Source: an uncultured Clostridium sp. (GTDB lineage: Bacteria; Bacillota; Clostridia; TANB77; CAG-508). Taken from it: a DNA stretch of 32,000 nt. Under the pieces are notes generated by a model. It ran no database searches, was not told the DNA's origin, and saw nothing but the letters and a program-made list of their open reading frames with translations. Numbering within the stretch: the first letter of the stretch is position 1; each line of letters starts with the position of its first letter. Position numbers and translations under genes: made by a program. Of this stretch, positions 2,359 to 29,311 are shown piece after piece. The stretch covers positions 16,485 through 48,484 of the forward strand of contig USNR01000001.1 in the NCBI GenBank assembly GCA_900556135.1. The letters run 5' to 3'.

Positions 2359-2413
2359 CTTTTTTCCTTCCAATTCCTATCTTATTAAACAATTTCATCT
2401 TTCAAACAATTCC

Positions 2414-2555
2414 AATGCATCTTATATGTTAATAATTATCGTTCTCCAGGGAACCCAGAAATTTTCCTTATGAAACTATGATAAAGACGAACATTCATAG
2501 TTAAGAGAAAATTCCAATCCCTAGCTTTCTCTAATTACTAACATATAAGAGCATT
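2414..2555 (+). repeat. Long-hairpin element, copy C1 (conserved core 2447-2523 inside a locus-specific ~24-bp outer stem)
   Basis: AATGCATCTTATATGTTAATAATTA (2414-2438) pairs with TAATTACTAACATATAAGAGCATT (2532-2555). The core CAGGGAACCCAGAAATTTTCC..ACTATGA-TAAAGACGAACAT-TCATAGT..GAGAAAATTCCAATCCCTA matches 17437-17513 directly. It matches 16860-16933 and 29079-29153 as the reverse complement. Confidence 0.8.
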
Positions 2556-2605
2556 ATAGATTTCATTATTAAATTGCACGCTTTAAAATGTCATATAATT
2601 GAATT

Positions 2606-4653: not shown

Positions 4654-6105
4654 TTACATAAATAGCGCTGGTCTAAATCCATGATATGATTGTGCTTGAT
4701 CTGGTCCACCTAAACGATATCCCGCTGGGCTTCCCTCTCCGCTATGTCTTCCAACATACGCTCCTCCTCTTCTAGTACATATAAGACTTGTACTAGATGT
4801 TTTTTCCGTTGTCCATTCCCATACATTTCCTCCCATATCATATATATTACAAACCGGTGTAGTTTGTCCCGTTGGTATTAAAACAGATTCACTTGCAGCC
4901 TTCGTTTTGCTTGCCCCTTTTATATCTTTATATGAAGTTAATCCTAAATCATTATAGTTCCCCTCTTTTGAATCCGAACCATAATTAGTCGCTTTAGTTT
5001 GAATAAAAGCTATTGCTGTATCCCAAGCATAACTACTACATAATTTTGTTTTAGCTTTATAGCCTTGTTTAGTTGCCATTCCCTCTGCTAAGGTTTGTGA
5101 TTGCGTCTTAGTTACCCAATTATATGGAACCTGACTCTTCTTCACAGTTACTGTATTACTTACAGTTGCTCCACTCACTCTCATAGTTTGTGATGCAGTA
5201 CTTTCTTTGTCTCCTGCTTCATATCTTCCTATATAATATCCTTTATATGATTCTACGCTTGCTTTCTCATCCGAAGGCATAGATTCTACATAATAGTATG
5301 TAGTATCAGCACTATTAATCTTTTCCGACTTAGTTGTTGTGTCTATTGTACCTGTAGATGTATTAATTGAATATGCAGCTCTCTTATAATCTGCTATACT
5401 TTCTACTGGTATCCACACAAACTGATTTCCGTCTTTATCTTCTATTACTATTCCGCCTGATACTTCTGTTGCTGAATCATATGCTATTTTAAATCCACTT
5501 GGAATTACTACTCTATCTTCTCCTATTAATATTGGTGTATTTACAGTTTTGCTTACCATAATATCTTTTTGTGCCTCATTTAATGAAATTGAATATGTTT
5601 TGGAGCTTATTATTGCTGTAGATTTATGGTTTTCTACATCTGTTGCTTCTACTGTAATTTCATATATTGTTGCTTCTTCTAGCCCTGTAAATGTATATGT
5701 TGTTGCTCTACTGTTTGTGCTATCTGTTTGCCAATCTCCATCTCCAATTTTGTATCTTATTACTGCAATTCCGCTTTTTGTTTCTGTAACATCAGCCTTT
5801 ACAGTAATGCTATATTTGGTTCTATCTGTAACTTTAACACTATTTATTTTTGGTGCATCTGTGTCAGCTACAACTTTTACTCCGTCTTCTGTGTATTCAT
5901 CGTCTTGTTTTAATTCATCTAATTTTGCTTGTCCTTCTTCTTGTGCTAAGGTTTGGTTTTGCTCTGTTTCTCTCATAATAGTTATCAAACCATTTTTCCC
6001 CACAGTAGTATTAAGTGTTATTCCTGCTAAAATCATTATAACCACAATAGTAATTACAAGCGCTACCAAAGTTATTCCTTTAGAATCTTTCACAATTTTT
6101 TTCAT
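4654..6105 (-). CDS. Pilin-like N-terminal helix + Fn3-like domain + FGE-sulfatase (SUMF1/C-type-lectin-like) domain surface protein
   Basis: The N-terminus MKKIVKDSKGITLVALVITIVVIMILAGITL is prepilin-like (G|ITLVA). An Fn3-like segment follows (DAPKINSVKVTDRTKYSITVKA...YEITVEATD). The C-terminal part has FGE-domain motifs: FVWIP, GYYIGRYEAG, NIYDMGGNVWEWT, RRGG and GFRPAL. Confidence 0.8.
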   Translation of the reverse strand: MKKIVKDSKGITLVALVITIVVIMILAGITLNTTVGKNGLITIMRETEQNQTLAQEEGQAKLDELKQDDEYTEDGVKVVADTDAPKINSVKVTDRTKYSITVKADVTETKSGIAVIRYKIGDGDWQTDSTNSRATTYTFTGLEEATIYEITVEATDVENHKSTAIISSKTYSISLNEAQKDIMVSKTVNTPILIGEDRVVIPSGFKIAYDSATEVSGGIVIEDKDGNQFVWIPVESIADYKRAAYSINTSTGTIDTTTKSEKINSADTTYYYVESMPSDEKASVESYKGYYIGRYEAGDKESTASQTMRVSGATVSNTVTVKKSQVPYNWVTKTQSQTLAEGMATKQGYKAKTKLCSSYAWDTAIAFIQTKATNYGSDSKEGNYNDLGLTSYKDIKGASKTKAASESVLIPTGQTTPVCNIYDMGGNVWEWTTEKTSSTSLICTRRGGAYVGRHSGEGSPAGYRLGGPDQAQSYHGFRPALFM

Positions 6106-16414: not shown

Positions 16415-16780
16415 CTAAATATATAAAATAGCTCTAAAACCAACATCTTCAGAGGTATCAGTAGGGTAAACCACATAGCTTCTATTTTCCTCAACATAAT
16501 TACCAGAACTTTTTATTTTGCCAAACTCAGAGTTATCAATTCCCAAAATTTTATCTATGTCACTATCAGCTGTTTCTAATTGCTCTTGCTCATTTGCACT
16601 AGCATTTGAATACTTATCTCTACTCTCGCCTGATTTTTTTATAATTCCATTATTATCTAATACCAATGTAATGCTTATTCCTGCTAATATTAATAACACA
16701 ACAATCGTTACCACAAGTGCCACTAATGTGATGCCCGAGTGTCTTCTTTCCTTTTTTAAAATTTTACATTTGTTTTTCAT
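16415..16780 (-). CDS. Small (121 aa) pilin-like N-terminal helix protein
   Basis: MKNKCKILKKERRHSGITLVALVVTIVVLLILAGISITL is paralogous to the N-termini of the 4654-6105 and 28105-28956 proteins. The ATG at 16780 has a GGAG RBS. The track start at 16858 lies inside the conserved non-coding leader. Confidence 0.75.
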   Translation of the reverse strand: MKNKCKILKKERRHSGITLVALVVTIVVLLILAGISITLVLDNNGIIKKSGESRDKYSNASANEQEQLETADSDIDKILGIDNSEFGKIKSSGNYVEENRSYVVYPTDTSEDVGFRAILYI

Positions 16781-16826: not shown

Positions 16827-16970
16827 CTAGCGCATTTGCTAATAAATATGAGACACAATTAGGGATTGAAATTTTCTCTTAACTATGAACCCACGTCTTT
16901 AACGTAGGACGATAAGGGAAATTTCTTTTCCTAATTTGGAACATATTATTAGTCAAAATGAGCGGTTGTC
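16827..16970 (-). repeat. Long-hairpin element, copy C2 (core 16860-16933), part of the 5' leader of the small pilin-like gene
   Basis: The minus strand reads GACAACCGCTCATTTTGACTAATAATATG...TAGGAAAAGAAATTTCC...TAAAGACGTGGG...TCATAGTTAAGAGAAAATTTCAATCCCTAATTG...CATATTTATTAG..ATGCGCTAG. It is homologous to 29046-29189 (same strand) and to 17400-17546 (opposite strand). Confidence 0.8.
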
Positions 16971-17060
16971 CTTCGCATTATTTTCTAATTTAATGCTCTA
17001 GTTTCAATGTTTACAAGCATTTCAAAATTTGGTATTAAGTATATTTTTGTTCATACTGAA

Positions 17061-17089
17061 AGTATAGCAATAAACTGCGAAAAAATCAA
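17061..17089 (-). promoter_or_regulatory. Sigma-A type promoter of the small pilin-like gene leader
   Basis: The minus strand reads TTGATT-N17-TATACT with TGC immediately upstream of the -10 (extended -10). Hexamers and spacing are identical to 29283-29311. Confidence 0.6.
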
Positions 17090-17399
17090 CATTTGAAAAC
17101 AAAAAGTTTTAAACAAATTATAAGAAAAATATTTTTTATAAGTCATTAAAAATTACTAGGAATGTTAGAATGTCACGGATATATACTAATAAAAAAAGAA
17201 TGCCAGATTTTCTTAAGTAATATACTTAATTCAAAAATAATTTTTATGTAACCAAATTTTATTTTATCTTGCTTAAATTCTATAACAAACCGTTTTATTT
17301 TTCAAGTCATTTTATCCTCAAATTTTAATTAAAGTAAAAATGAAAGTAATTTTCTATCACAAATTAAGGTCTATAATTTTTGTCAATTATTTTTCTTCT

Positions 17400-17546
17400 G
17401 ACATCCGCTCATTTTGCATAATAAAATGATGTAAATCAGGGAACCCAGAAATTTTCCTTCTGCAACTATGATAAAGACAAATGCTCATAGTTAAGAGAAA
17501 ATTTCAATCCCTAATTGTACATCATTTTTATTATGCCATGCGCTAG
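17400..17546 (+). repeat. Long-hairpin element, copy C3 (core 17437-17513), orphan copy in inverted orientation relative to C2
   Basis: GACATCCGCTCATTTTGCATAATAAAATGATGTAAATCAGGGAACCCAGAAATTTTCCTTCTGCAACTATGATAAAGACAAATGCTCATAGTTAAGAGAAAATTTCAATCCCTAATTGTACATCATTTTTATTATGCCATGCGCTAG. The outer stem GCATAATAAAATGATGTA / TACATCATTTTTATTATGC is nearly perfect. Confidence 0.8.
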
Positions 17547-19678: not shown

Positions 19679-19814
19679 GAGTTTTATTTTATATAATAAG
19701 AAAGCTATATAACTTTCCTATTATATAAAATACCTTGCATAGAGAATTTATTTCATAAATTTTTGCACATGAACAAACTTACTGAAATTTCTAATTTTAT
19801 AGAAAAACATAAGA

Positions 19815-19847
19815 AATAAAAAAAGACTGAAAATTGAAAATTTTCAG
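19815..19847 (-). terminator. Rho-independent terminator after the M23 peptidase gene
   Basis: The minus strand reads CTGAAAATTTTCAATTTTCAG followed by TCTTTTTTTATTTC. Confidence 0.5.
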
Positions 19848-23544: not shown

Positions 23545-23745
23545 TAGCAAAACTTGGCAAGTTTGCTCGATTTATGGGAAGTTTCCGACATTTTTTGCAT
23601 TTTTCATAAGAGAACAAATCTGAGATTTTCAATTTTCAGTTTTTTCCTACTATTTATGCTTTTCTATAAAATTAAAAATTTCATTAAATTTTCCGTGCAA
23701 TGTATTTTATATAATATGAAACCCTATATAATTTTCTTATTTATA

Positions 23746-28104: not shown

Positions 28105-28956
28105 CTATTTTTTGTAATTAATGTTCATAGTAGTATTTGTATAATAAGTACTATTCCACTCTTCATTCCAACCGTCTGGTTTCTTCCCTGCCATAAACGG
28201 TACATTTATAGTAATGTCTACTGAACTACCAAATGCATAAGCTCCTACTGTAACTACCTTATCTGGTATCGTTATCAATGTCAGACTACTTCCACTAAAA
28301 GCATAAGAGCCTATTTTCTCTAATTCATCTGGTATATCTATATTAGTTAAGCTAGTATTTTCATAGAAAGCTGAGCTTCCTATAGTTTTTAATGTACTGC
28401 TAAGATATACGTTTTTTACAGCCCTACATCCAGCAAAAGAATAGTCTCCAACTTCTTCTATACCGTCTGAAATAGTTATTTTTGTAACAGTTTTATTACC
28501 ACTGAACCAACTTGCGCTTCCTCCTATGTGAACTGTTTCTCCATTATGTGGCAATATATTTTTACCTTCTATTCTTTTTACTGCTACTCCATTTATATAA
28601 TTTGGAATAACAATTTCTGTTTCGGTACCTTTATATTGCGTTATTACTAACTCCCCATTATCTTCTGTTTCACAGGCCCAATCACTTGGATTTTCAGGCT
28701 CCACAACCTCTATTGTTTTTCCGTGACTCTCTATCCAATCATTTGCTTCTTTCATACCATTTTGTTCATTTACTTTTGCTTGTCCATATTTTTCTCTACT
28801 CTCTTCAGCTTTTGCTACTATTCCATTATTTTGTAAAATTAAATTAATACTCACCCCTGCCAATATCATTAAAATAACTATTGTAACCACAAGAGCCACT
28901 AAAGTTATACCTTTTTCCTTCCTTACTTTCTTAAAAATTTTGCATTTGTATTCCAT
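28105..28956 (-). CDS. Pilin-like N-terminal helix + BspA-type leucine-rich-repeat surface protein
   Basis: The N-terminus is MEYKCKIFKKVRKEKGITLVALVVTIVILMILAGVSINL. The C-terminal part has repeats of the LRR_5/BspA type (I.IPNYINGVAVKRIEG, ITISDGIEEVGDYSFAGC, VYLSSTLKTIGSSAFYEN, IDIPDELEKIGSYAFSGS, ITIPDKVVTVGAYAFG). Confidence 0.8.
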   Translation of the reverse strand: MEYKCKIFKKVRKEKGITLVALVVTIVILMILAGVSINLILQNNGIVAKAEESREKYGQAKVNEQNGMKEANDWIESHGKTIEVVEPENPSDWACETEDNGELVITQYKGTETEIVIPNYINGVAVKRIEGKNILPHNGETVHIGGSASWFSGNKTVTKITISDGIEEVGDYSFAGCRAVKNVYLSSTLKTIGSSAFYENTSLTNIDIPDELEKIGSYAFSGSSLTLITIPDKVVTVGAYAFGSSVDITINVPFMAGKKPDGWNEEWNSTYYTNTTMNINYKK

Positions 28957-29045: not shown

Positions 29046-29189
29046 CTAGCGCATTGACTAATAAATATGAGACACAATTAGGGATTGAAATTTTCTCTTA
29101 ACTATGAGCTCACGTCTTTATCATTAGTTGCAGAAGGTAAATTTCTTTTCCTAATTTGGATCATTTTATTAGCCAAAAGAGCGGATGTC
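29046..29189 (-). repeat. Long-hairpin element, copy C4 (core 29079-29153), part of the 5' leader of the LRR pilin-like gene
   Basis: The minus strand reads GACATCCGCTCTTTTGGCTAATAAAATGATCCAAATTAGGAAAAGAAATTTACCTTCTGCAACTAATGATAAAGACGTGAGCTCATAGTTAAGAGAAAATTTCAATCCCTAATTGTGTCTCATATTTATTAGTCAATGCGCTAG. It aligns along its whole length with 17400-17546. Confidence 0.8.
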
Positions 29190-29282
29190 CTTCGCATTAT
29201 TTCATCACTAAATGTTCAAGTTCTAACGTTTCCAAGCATTCTTTTATTTGGTATTAAGTATATAACTTAAGGATTTATTGAA

Positions 29283-29311
29283 AGTATACCAATAATCTAC
29301 TGAAAAATCAA
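29283..29311 (-). promoter_or_regulatory. Sigma-A type promoter of the LRR pilin-like gene leader
   Basis: The minus strand reads TTGATT-N17-TATACT with TGG immediately upstream of the -10. Hexamers and spacing are the same as at 17061-17089, within a homologous block of about 285 bp. Confidence 0.6.

Follow-up and report, generated by a model that had tools for sequence, protein, structure and literature searches.

A long-hairpin repeat in prepilin-like gene leaders of an uncultured gut Clostridium

The DNA that we analysed, hereafter the window, is a 32-kb stretch from an uncultured gut Clostridium with a G+C content of 29%. It contains four copies of a repeat that folds as a long hairpin, and we found that this element lies in the leader of 10/10 distinct prepilin-like genes that have a leader of their own, always in the sense orientation. 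The count covers the window's species and the organism represented by the metagenome OIYO01. An earlier note on the same DNA had described the hairpin and its copies and had missed the main biological fact about them, which is this tight link to the leaders of prepilin-like genes. Our best explanation, to which we would give a probability of about 45%, is that a palindromic repeat of the ERIC, Correia or REP2 kind has been fixed as a co-transcribed, cis-acting leader hairpin of pilin-like mRNAs.

Results

Anatomy of the element

The repeat unit is ~145 nt long and is present at multiple genomic sites. Alignment of wider flanks identified three window copies of this length, one on the plus strand at 17400-17546 and two on the minus strand at 16827-16970 and 29046-29189, which score 162, 150 and 144 bits, respectively, with the covariance model R1 described below. 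The ends GACATCCGCTC…ATGCGCTAG are common to the three copies, as is an AT-rich outer stem, and the conserved 5' and 3' ends of the unit can be given as GACATCCGCTCATTTTG and ATGCGCTAG. Nested within this AT-rich shell with conserved ends is a 75-nt core bounded by (T/C)AGGGA…TCCCTA. The fourth copy (2408-2557, plus strand; 72 bits), located in the spacer between nusB and xseA, carries the core (2447-2523) inside an unrelated but self-complementary shell, the arms of which, TCTTATATGTTAATAATTA and TAATTACTAACATATAAGA, are complementary at 18 of 19 positions.

The earlier note had placed a 77-nt core at these four sites, and its positions were confirmed in the sequence; a search for a 23-mer of the 3' arm, allowing up to three mismatches, returned four occurrences in the window, compared with 0.00 expected in shuffles. 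The 77-nt core is real, but the full unit is longer in three of the four copies. Nor are the outer stems specific to each copy, as had been supposed. Because three copies share ~145 nt including the outer stem, the stems are instead specific to subtypes, namely type A, GCATAATAAAATGATGTA, at 17.4 kb, where the full element forms a near-perfect long hairpin, and type B, GACTAATAATATG, at 16.9 and 29.1 kb. The 2.4-kb copy alone falls outside these types.

The whole unit is an imperfect palindrome in which the core ends are TAGGGA and TCCCTA and the conserved ends CCGCTCAT and ATGCGC pair only in part. The conserved 3' end ATGCGCTAG, found at 29046-29054 and in most copies (L008 has ATGCGCTAA), is readable as a start-Arg-stop mini-ORF, ATG-CGC-TAG, which has no ribosome-binding site. 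This reading is probably incidental, because the 3' end pairs with the 5' end and two copies (L006 and L100) have ATA.

The copy at 17.4 kb has no gene downstream of it. It lies ~125 nt past the 3' end of an MFS gene and is inverted, ~100 nt upstream of a promoter (P2, see below) of a pilin-like gene. This arrangement was also found in the assembly GCA_902476995.1 (L100), and ~150 nt of the flank is common with L008 of a related organism.

The element in the leaders of prepilin-like genes

Two window copies, both with type B shells, occupy the 5' UTRs of prepilin-like genes. The copy at 16827-16970 precedes a gene encoding a 121-aa protein (KILKKERRHSGITLVALVVTIVVLLILAG…; 16415-16780, minus strand). 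It starts ~91 nt after the −10 box of a promoter-like site, P1 (17061-17089, minus strand), which consists of TTGATT and TATACT with a 17-nt spacer that includes TG, and it ends 46 nt before the ATG at 16780. The copy at 29046-29189 precedes a gene encoding a 283-aa protein with a BspA-type leucine-rich-repeat domain (28105-28956, minus strand); it starts ~94 nt after the −10 box of the P1 site of this second module (29283-29311, minus strand) and 89 nt separate its end from the ATG at 28956. The products of both genes begin ...K-GITLVALVVTIVVLLILAG..., which is a prepilin-type N-terminus, and the 283-aa protein matched Pfam LRR_5 at 2.5e-25 and N_methyl at 4.9e-4, the latter just under the cut-off. 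Upstream of P1 in the first module lies a second promoter-like site, P2 (17277-17305, minus strand; TTGAAA and TAGAAT separated by 17 nt). The P1 hexamers are repeated in L001, L009, L010 and L100, and the P2 block is conserved in L008 and L009. No terminator-like site was found between the element and the gene in the 16.9- and 29.1-kb modules. From the conserved upstream promoters and the absent terminators, we infer that the leader copies are transcribed together with their genes.

The 10 genes that carry the element in their leaders are the window genes at 16.9 and 29.1 kb and those in L100, L110, L112, L009, L010, L012, L016 and L015. The last of these is truncated, and its pilin-like gene retains only half of the hairpin. 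The leader copies lie between promoter and start, ~50-95 nt after the promoter and 46-170 nt before the start codon. The sole paralogue lacking the element (4654-6105) has no leader, as it begins 50 nt behind fmt.

The three paralogous prepilin-like genes within the 32 kb (4654-6105, 16415-16780 and 28105-28956) are all on the minus strand. The N-terminus KGITLVALV.TIV..ILAG is common to their products, the C-terminal parts of which are unrelated (fn3/FGE-sulfatase-like, short, and BspA-type LRR, respectively); in all three, Ala takes the place of the usual Glu at position +5 relative to the presumed cleavage site.

The modules contain other conserved DNA. The palindrome CTTAAGTAATATACTTAAT at 17212-17236 (inverted pair I19) has a second copy at 29247-29271 and a half-site at 17031-17044. 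Its consensus, TTAAGTA(T/A)AT(T/A)ACTTAA, is located upstream and just downstream of pilin-like promoters and was also found in L009, L010 and L001. We regard it as a candidate operator, likely that of a shared transcription factor. Similar palindromes precede homologous genes in other Clostridia in which the hairpin is missing (L042 and L086). An extra conserved block (CGAATTGAAATTATTATACTAA…TTCGG) stands between the hairpin and the ribosome-binding site at L100:5160-5329, L009:3680-3830 and L016:10716-10866, and AGTATTTTAC.AAAGGAAAA is present just ahead of the ribosome-binding site in all leaders. The hairpin is, therefore, not the sole conserved part of the 5' UTR.

Further copies and variants

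As had been suggested in the earlier note, the copies were used to build a covariance model with which to scan for more. The model, R1, was built from 14 copies; it recovers every copy and found further copies and variants. The metagenome scan returned 14 loci, 13 of which are from one metagenome (OIYO01). The match in L014 was rejected as a chance match within a coding region, and L011 was rejected as a full copy, being a fragment only. Further paralogues of the window's species contributed three more leader copies (L109, L110 and L112), and the total stands at 22 full or near-full copies plus fragments. Many more copies had been expected genome-wide; more do exist, but the OIYO01 organism has ~15 full copies plus fragments, not hundreds.

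The variants include a shell-only copy from which the 85-nt centre is missing (L009:4365-4426), one that consists of the 5' half alone (L015:3467-3606) and one in which the centre is short (L015:10097-10203). In L010 (467-949, minus strand), a tandem triplet with a spacing of 169-170 nt is positioned directly upstream of a pilin-like gene, its units being joined by similar 23-24-nt linkers (…ATAATTATAATGC…). A CRISPR- or attC-like array was considered for this locus and rejected, given the ~145-nt units, the similar short linkers and the pilin-like gene next to them.

The copies outside leaders are orphans in varied sites and in both orientations relative to the neighbouring genes. They occupy the spacer between nusB and xseA, 3' ends of genes (valS-like and others), a divergent promoter region and, in the case of the inverted 17.4-kb copy, the upstream edge of a pilin promoter region. 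Orphans mostly have near-perfect type A shells and leader copies have type B shells. With its multiple copies, its size, its stable fold, its occurrence in both orientations and its deletion and insertion variants, the element has the features of a stem-loop intergenic repeat.

Filled and empty sites could be compared at nusB-xseA, where the 2.4-kb copy is antisense to both genes. The spacer is 206-247 nt long and filled by the element in 4/4 assemblies of this species, so that no same-species empty site was found among them. In relatives with NusB identities of 90% and 82%, the spacer is 59 or 31 nt long or the two genes overlap. As judged by this comparison, the element has been gained at nusB-xseA in this lineage relative to these relatives, which are too diverged to place the insertion borders. 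A TTCTC direct repeat flanks the core within the 2.4-kb shell, which is a single case; the type A copies have no shared flanking direct repeat, and a search for target-site duplications gave no consistent case. In the ORF maps of the window and of L001-L016, nothing resembling a transposase was noticed.

Lineage restriction and database searches

The pilin-like family itself has a wide distribution in uncultured gut Clostridia, and 426 of its loci were confirmed in the genome collection. R1 was run on 437 kb surrounding the 80 best of these loci, all from other Clostridia, and found no copy. The element is, therefore, lineage-restricted, and the result points to a recent and narrow acquisition and rules out an ancient conserved leader. 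It also follows that the gene family does not need the element. Long hairpins that do occur near pilin-like genes of other Clostridia were rejected as homologues, being unrelated repeats or terminators.

An exact 22-base scan of the representative-genome collection (one genome per species) gave 0 matches; the species is apparently absent from that collection, because the best pilin-like matches there reach only 68% identity. Proteins identical to those of the window were found in human-gut metagenome-assembled genomes such as GCA_902476995.1. Among the window's genes are sporulation genes, namely the set for the anti-sigma F factor antagonist, the kinase and sigma F, and those for SpoIID and YunB homologues.

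The earlier note had assigned the hairpin to no named RNA family, and our searches agree with this. Rfam 15 gave 0 matches over the whole window at gathering thresholds and, at permissive thresholds, only weak matches to generic microRNA-precursor hairpins (23.7 bits against a threshold of 83). No match to the element was found in the phage, plasmid and viral collections or, for its sequence, in a full-text search. Function as a terminator was rejected because there is no U tract; no run of T follows the hairpin on either strand, and no terminator-like site on the sense strand coincides with it. The lone overlap is a terminator-like 5-bp stem on the opposite strand (29181-29195) at the 5' end of the 29.1-kb copy.

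Folding and pairing

The sequence at 17400-17546 folds with a minimum free energy of −45.7 kcal/mol, compared with −19.9 kcal/mol for shuffles (z = −7.8), and the z values of the other three copies are −6.8 (2.4-kb copy), −4.6 and −3.1. Its minimum free energy structure is the fold proposed in the earlier note: an asymmetric internal loop separates a 9-bp stem from an apical stem of 7-8 bp, which is capped by a loop of 13 nt. Likewise present are CCTACGT:ACGTGGG, the alternative apical stem of the 16.9-kb copy, and both of the outer stems quoted in that note. The apical motif TAAAGAC, reported as conserved, is constant in the four window copies, but across 22 copies only AAG followed by (A/T)(C/T) is kept; no other part of the element varies as much as the rest of the apical loop.

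When the 22 copies were aligned to the model, 83% of the cells paired. Changes on both sides were seen in 17 pairs (56 cells), a number reached by 0/500 shuffles and by no slid control, in an alignment that was fitted to the structure and, hence, inflates such counts. All 17 of these pairs lie in the outer helices. The 20-pair core helix contains none, and no covariation was detected in it across the 22 copies. Because the double changes derive from only three shell types (A, B and that of the 2.4-kb copy), they represent few events. The inference that compensatory stems reveal selection on the fold is supported only in part: the double changes in the outer helices are real, but these amount to few events, and the core lacks covariation. 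The core of the 2.4-kb copy is 91% identical to the others and its shell has no detectable similarity to theirs; this copy looks like the core placed in a different palindromic context and not like the product of compensatory drift.

The mismatches on the mRNA-sense strand are A.C (35) far more often than G.U (7) and are concentrated in three columns. Furthermore, the opposite strand folds better in 4/4 window copies, reaching −53.2 kcal/mol at 17400-17546. Together, the A.C bias and the better fold of the opposite strand do not speak for selection that acts only on the fold of the sense RNA. The palindrome is maintained; that the sense RNA is the selected form does not follow from these data.

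Conservation, exchange and recombination

Mean pairwise identity was computed over seven aligned paralogous modules. The 5' and 3' arms of the element have identities of 0.89 and 0.95, which exceed those of the apical loop (0.66), the promoter (0.62) and the DNA encoding the conserved prepilin N-terminus (0.70-0.75), and the arms are, therefore, the best-kept DNA of the module. This conservation is compatible with purifying selection on the sequence of the arms as well as with homogenisation between copies.

Evidence of exchange was obtained from the locus orthologous to that at 29.1 kb in another strain (L109), which is 98% identical to the window over 421 nt. Four of six adjacent loop bases are replaced together in L109, and the replaced loop is within one base of that of the 2.4-kb copy. 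This strain comparison indicates that homogenisation between copies occurs.

A second comparison involves GCA_902476995.1, in which both the upstream neighbour and the 5' leader of the 121-aa gene differ from those in the window (L001), and the window's upstream region, comprising the MFS gene, the inverted copy and the promoters, is joined to another pilin-like gene (L100). The flanking genes are MFS in the window and Sm_multidrug_ex and RNase R in L001. When window positions 16827-17100 were compared with L001:8000-8330 and L100:4900-5330, the 16.9-kb leader was found to equal L100 as far as the 5' arm and, starting at the apical loop, L001, which places the crossover within ~70 identical bases of the element. 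The hybrid leader is either a real rearrangement or an assembly chimera, the latter being possible because contigs end inside copies of the element. The earlier note had ascribed the conservation of the hairpin to selection rather than to duplication; that reading needs revision, as the copies demonstrably recombine with one another, which can account for much of this conservation.

The arms at 16827-16926 and 17447-17546 form inverted repeats that are 79% complementary over 100 nt (pair I1). The pair encloses P1, P2 and the palindrome, a layout seen only at this locus and its orthologue.

Discussion

One possible course of events under the leader-hairpin explanation given at the outset is as follows. 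The leader copy would be transcribed within the mRNA and would fold in vivo into a long irregular hairpin. This hairpin would affect expression in cis as a processing or stability module of the mRNA, its helix being of the type that serves as an RNase III substrate, or, alternatively, as a binding platform for a common regulator. The whole prepilin-like gene family might then be handled alike after transcription. The orphans would be spin-offs that arose through insertion, deletion and recombination, and the copies keep exchanging sequence, acting as substrates of homologous recombination that rearranges these loci. Several observations speak against this explanation. The core helix lacks covariation, the sense strand carries A.C mismatches and the antisense strand folds better; orphans exist in both orientations; and one pilin-like gene has half a hairpin. 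In addition, the identity of the arms could stem from exchange between copies and not from selection.

If the hairpin controls mRNA fate, then it would provide simple co-regulation of the whole family of pilin-like LRR surface proteins, which are likely adhesins, and the case would be an example of a repeat that becomes a regulatory module. If it is neutral, the element still marks recombination and assembly breakpoints in these genomes and, therefore, explains the fragmented metagenome-derived assemblies at these loci. R1 is, in either case, a specific finder for the leaders of this gene family.

An alternative that we consider rather doubtful is that the element is a selfish or neutral non-autonomous mobile repeat of the MITE, ERIC or bcr1 type, which spread recently and is carried as a passenger in duplicated pilin-like leaders. 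Its palindromy would be maintained in the DNA itself, through templated correction within quasi-palindromes and through exchange between copies, with no selection on RNA. The lineage restriction and the gain in the nusB-xseA spacer are what such a repeat would produce, as are the orphans in both orientations at varied intergenic sites, the internal-deletion, shell-only and tandem variants, the contigs that break at copies and the TTCTC repeat around the core in the 2.4-kb shell. The lack of covariation in the core helix and the bias of sense mismatches to A.C also agree with it, and the loop replacement between strains attests to exchange between copies. However, no consistent target-site duplication and, at any locus, no transposase was seen, the ends are only loosely complementary and the copy number is low. 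The 10/10 association with fixed orientation and position would be uncommon for an element that inserts at random, although it would follow from duplication of whole modules. Moreover, the arms are far better conserved than the loop, promoter and coding DNA, whereas recent spread would have kept the loop equally similar.

Another scenario, which we think improbable, is that the element is a recombination module that varies the repertoire or expression of pilin-like adhesins. The copies would be crossover sites at which promoters and gene bodies are swapped between loci, and the inverted pair at 16.9/17.4 kb would flank an invertible promoter segment, as in phase variation. The inverted arms do enclose both promoter-like sites and the palindrome, the inverted layout recurs in L100 and its flank in L008 of the related organism, and the break of synteny between strains falls inside the element and joins the promoter region to a different pilin-like gene. 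The tandem triplet and the shell-only remnant upstream of other modules could be read in the same way. On the other hand, both of the assemblies that span the locus (2/2) have the same, ON, orientation, a sample in which rare inversion could be missed; an inverted partner is lacking in most modules; and a Pfam scan of eight neighbouring proteins detected no recombinase domain. The repeats of known invertons are much shorter. Identical breakpoints would result from ordinary homologous recombination at any repeat of 145 nt, and the assemblies may be chimeric.

One could also envision, with similarly little confidence, that the hairpin is the working part of an undescribed system for variation or regulation of prepilin-like adhesins. 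Its invariant arms would be the target of a dedicated protein, which could be a recombinase or a regulator that binds RNA, the fast-changing apical loop would serve as a gene-specific address or hotspot, and promoter inversion and exchange of gene bodies, made possible by inverted and tandem copies, would result in phase or antigenic variation. A ligand-sensing riboswitch or an independent small RNA gene is very improbable: the conserved leader position and internal loops, the partly conserved AAG of the loop and the 17.4-kb orphan, which could be a free-standing RNA, would suit such an RNA, but the element matches no Rfam family, consists of one unbranched hairpin that offers neither a junction nor a pocket, has no adjacent terminator or Shine-Dalgarno-sequestering alternative, is confined to one narrow lineage even though the genes are widespread, occurs as three nearly identical tandem copies and has no convincing promoter or terminator around its orphans.

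The sequence of the element is new, but the kind of repeat is already known in bacteria. It is best placed among the stem-loop intergenic repeats ERIC, Correia and bcr1, with REP2 as the closest parallel for the gene association. As outlined in PMC2649163 and PMC3184786, Correia, ERIC, bcr1 and REP2 are hairpins that are co-transcribed and influence the cleavage or the stability of mRNA, or that are located upstream of co-regulated genes.

ERIC sequences, in the account of PMC3184786 (citing De Gregorio 2005 and Wilson & Sharp 2006), are co-transcribed with their neighbours, and the hairpin can change mRNA decay. According to the same source, they resemble our element in being intergenic imperfect palindromes of ~127-150 bp, present in either orientation and in moderate copy number, with shorter and longer variants that arise through internal deletion or insertion. 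In contrast to ERIC, to which it has no sequence relation, the element has a Firmicute host, most of its copies are tied to the 5' UTR of one gene family, and no TA-flanked ends or target duplications were seen.

Correia elements (CREE / NEMIS) of Neisseria form mRNA hairpins that are bound or cut by RNase III, which alters expression (PMC2649163). They and the element have in common the inverted-repeat arms around a conserved core, the location in 5' UTRs, the mRNA hairpin, which is predicted in our case, and a presence or absence that varies from strain to strain (PMC2649163). Unlike the element, in which none of these was found, Correia elements have defined terminal inverted repeats, a TA duplication, IHF sites and promoter-forming ends; the promoter of our modules lies outside the element.

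REP2 is thought to derive from the regulatory region of a gene and to have been copied from there (PMC3184786, citing Morelle 2003). As PMC3184786 describes them, REP2 of Neisseria meningitidis and IR-A/IR-B of Borrelia are, like the element, upstream or 5'-UTR modules of 120-150 nt with internal stem-loops. REP2 and the element both precede sets of surface or adhesion genes, and the REP2 set, which includes the pilus adhesin gene pilC1, is described there as co-regulated. REP2 contains a promoter and a ribosome-binding site as well as an ATG and has no terminal inverted repeats, whereas the element is one long hairpin between the promoter and the ribosome-binding site and also occurs as orphans and inverted copies.

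The bcr1 repeat of the Bacillus cereus group is transcribed and ~155 bp long, and compensatory changes keep its RNA fold, as reported in PMC3184786 (citing Okstad 2004 and Klevan 2007). Both bcr1 and the element are Firmicute repeats of similar length with a distribution that differs between related strains (PMC3184786). They differ in that bcr1 has flanking 5-bp direct repeats, two stem-loops and no association with a gene family, and there is no sequence similarity between the two.

Other repeats in the window and near pilin-like genes

A different long palindromic repeat was observed near pilin-like genes in other Clostridia metagenome assemblies (L037, L058, L068 and L094), with arms AATGAATAGTGAATAATGAATAA… around a GC-rich GGGTCGGTCAAGACCGACCC hairpin. 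The window itself contains a second, unrelated repeat pair at 19714-19841 (plus strand) and 23625-23721 (minus strand), the members of which are complementary at 85% over 67 nt and at 86% over 37 nt. The pair is inverted around a 3.8-kb segment with peptidase M23, spoIID and spoIIA/sigF genes. It contains a small hairpin, CTGAAAATTGAAAATTTTCAG, and a similar motif adjoins a copy of the element in L015.
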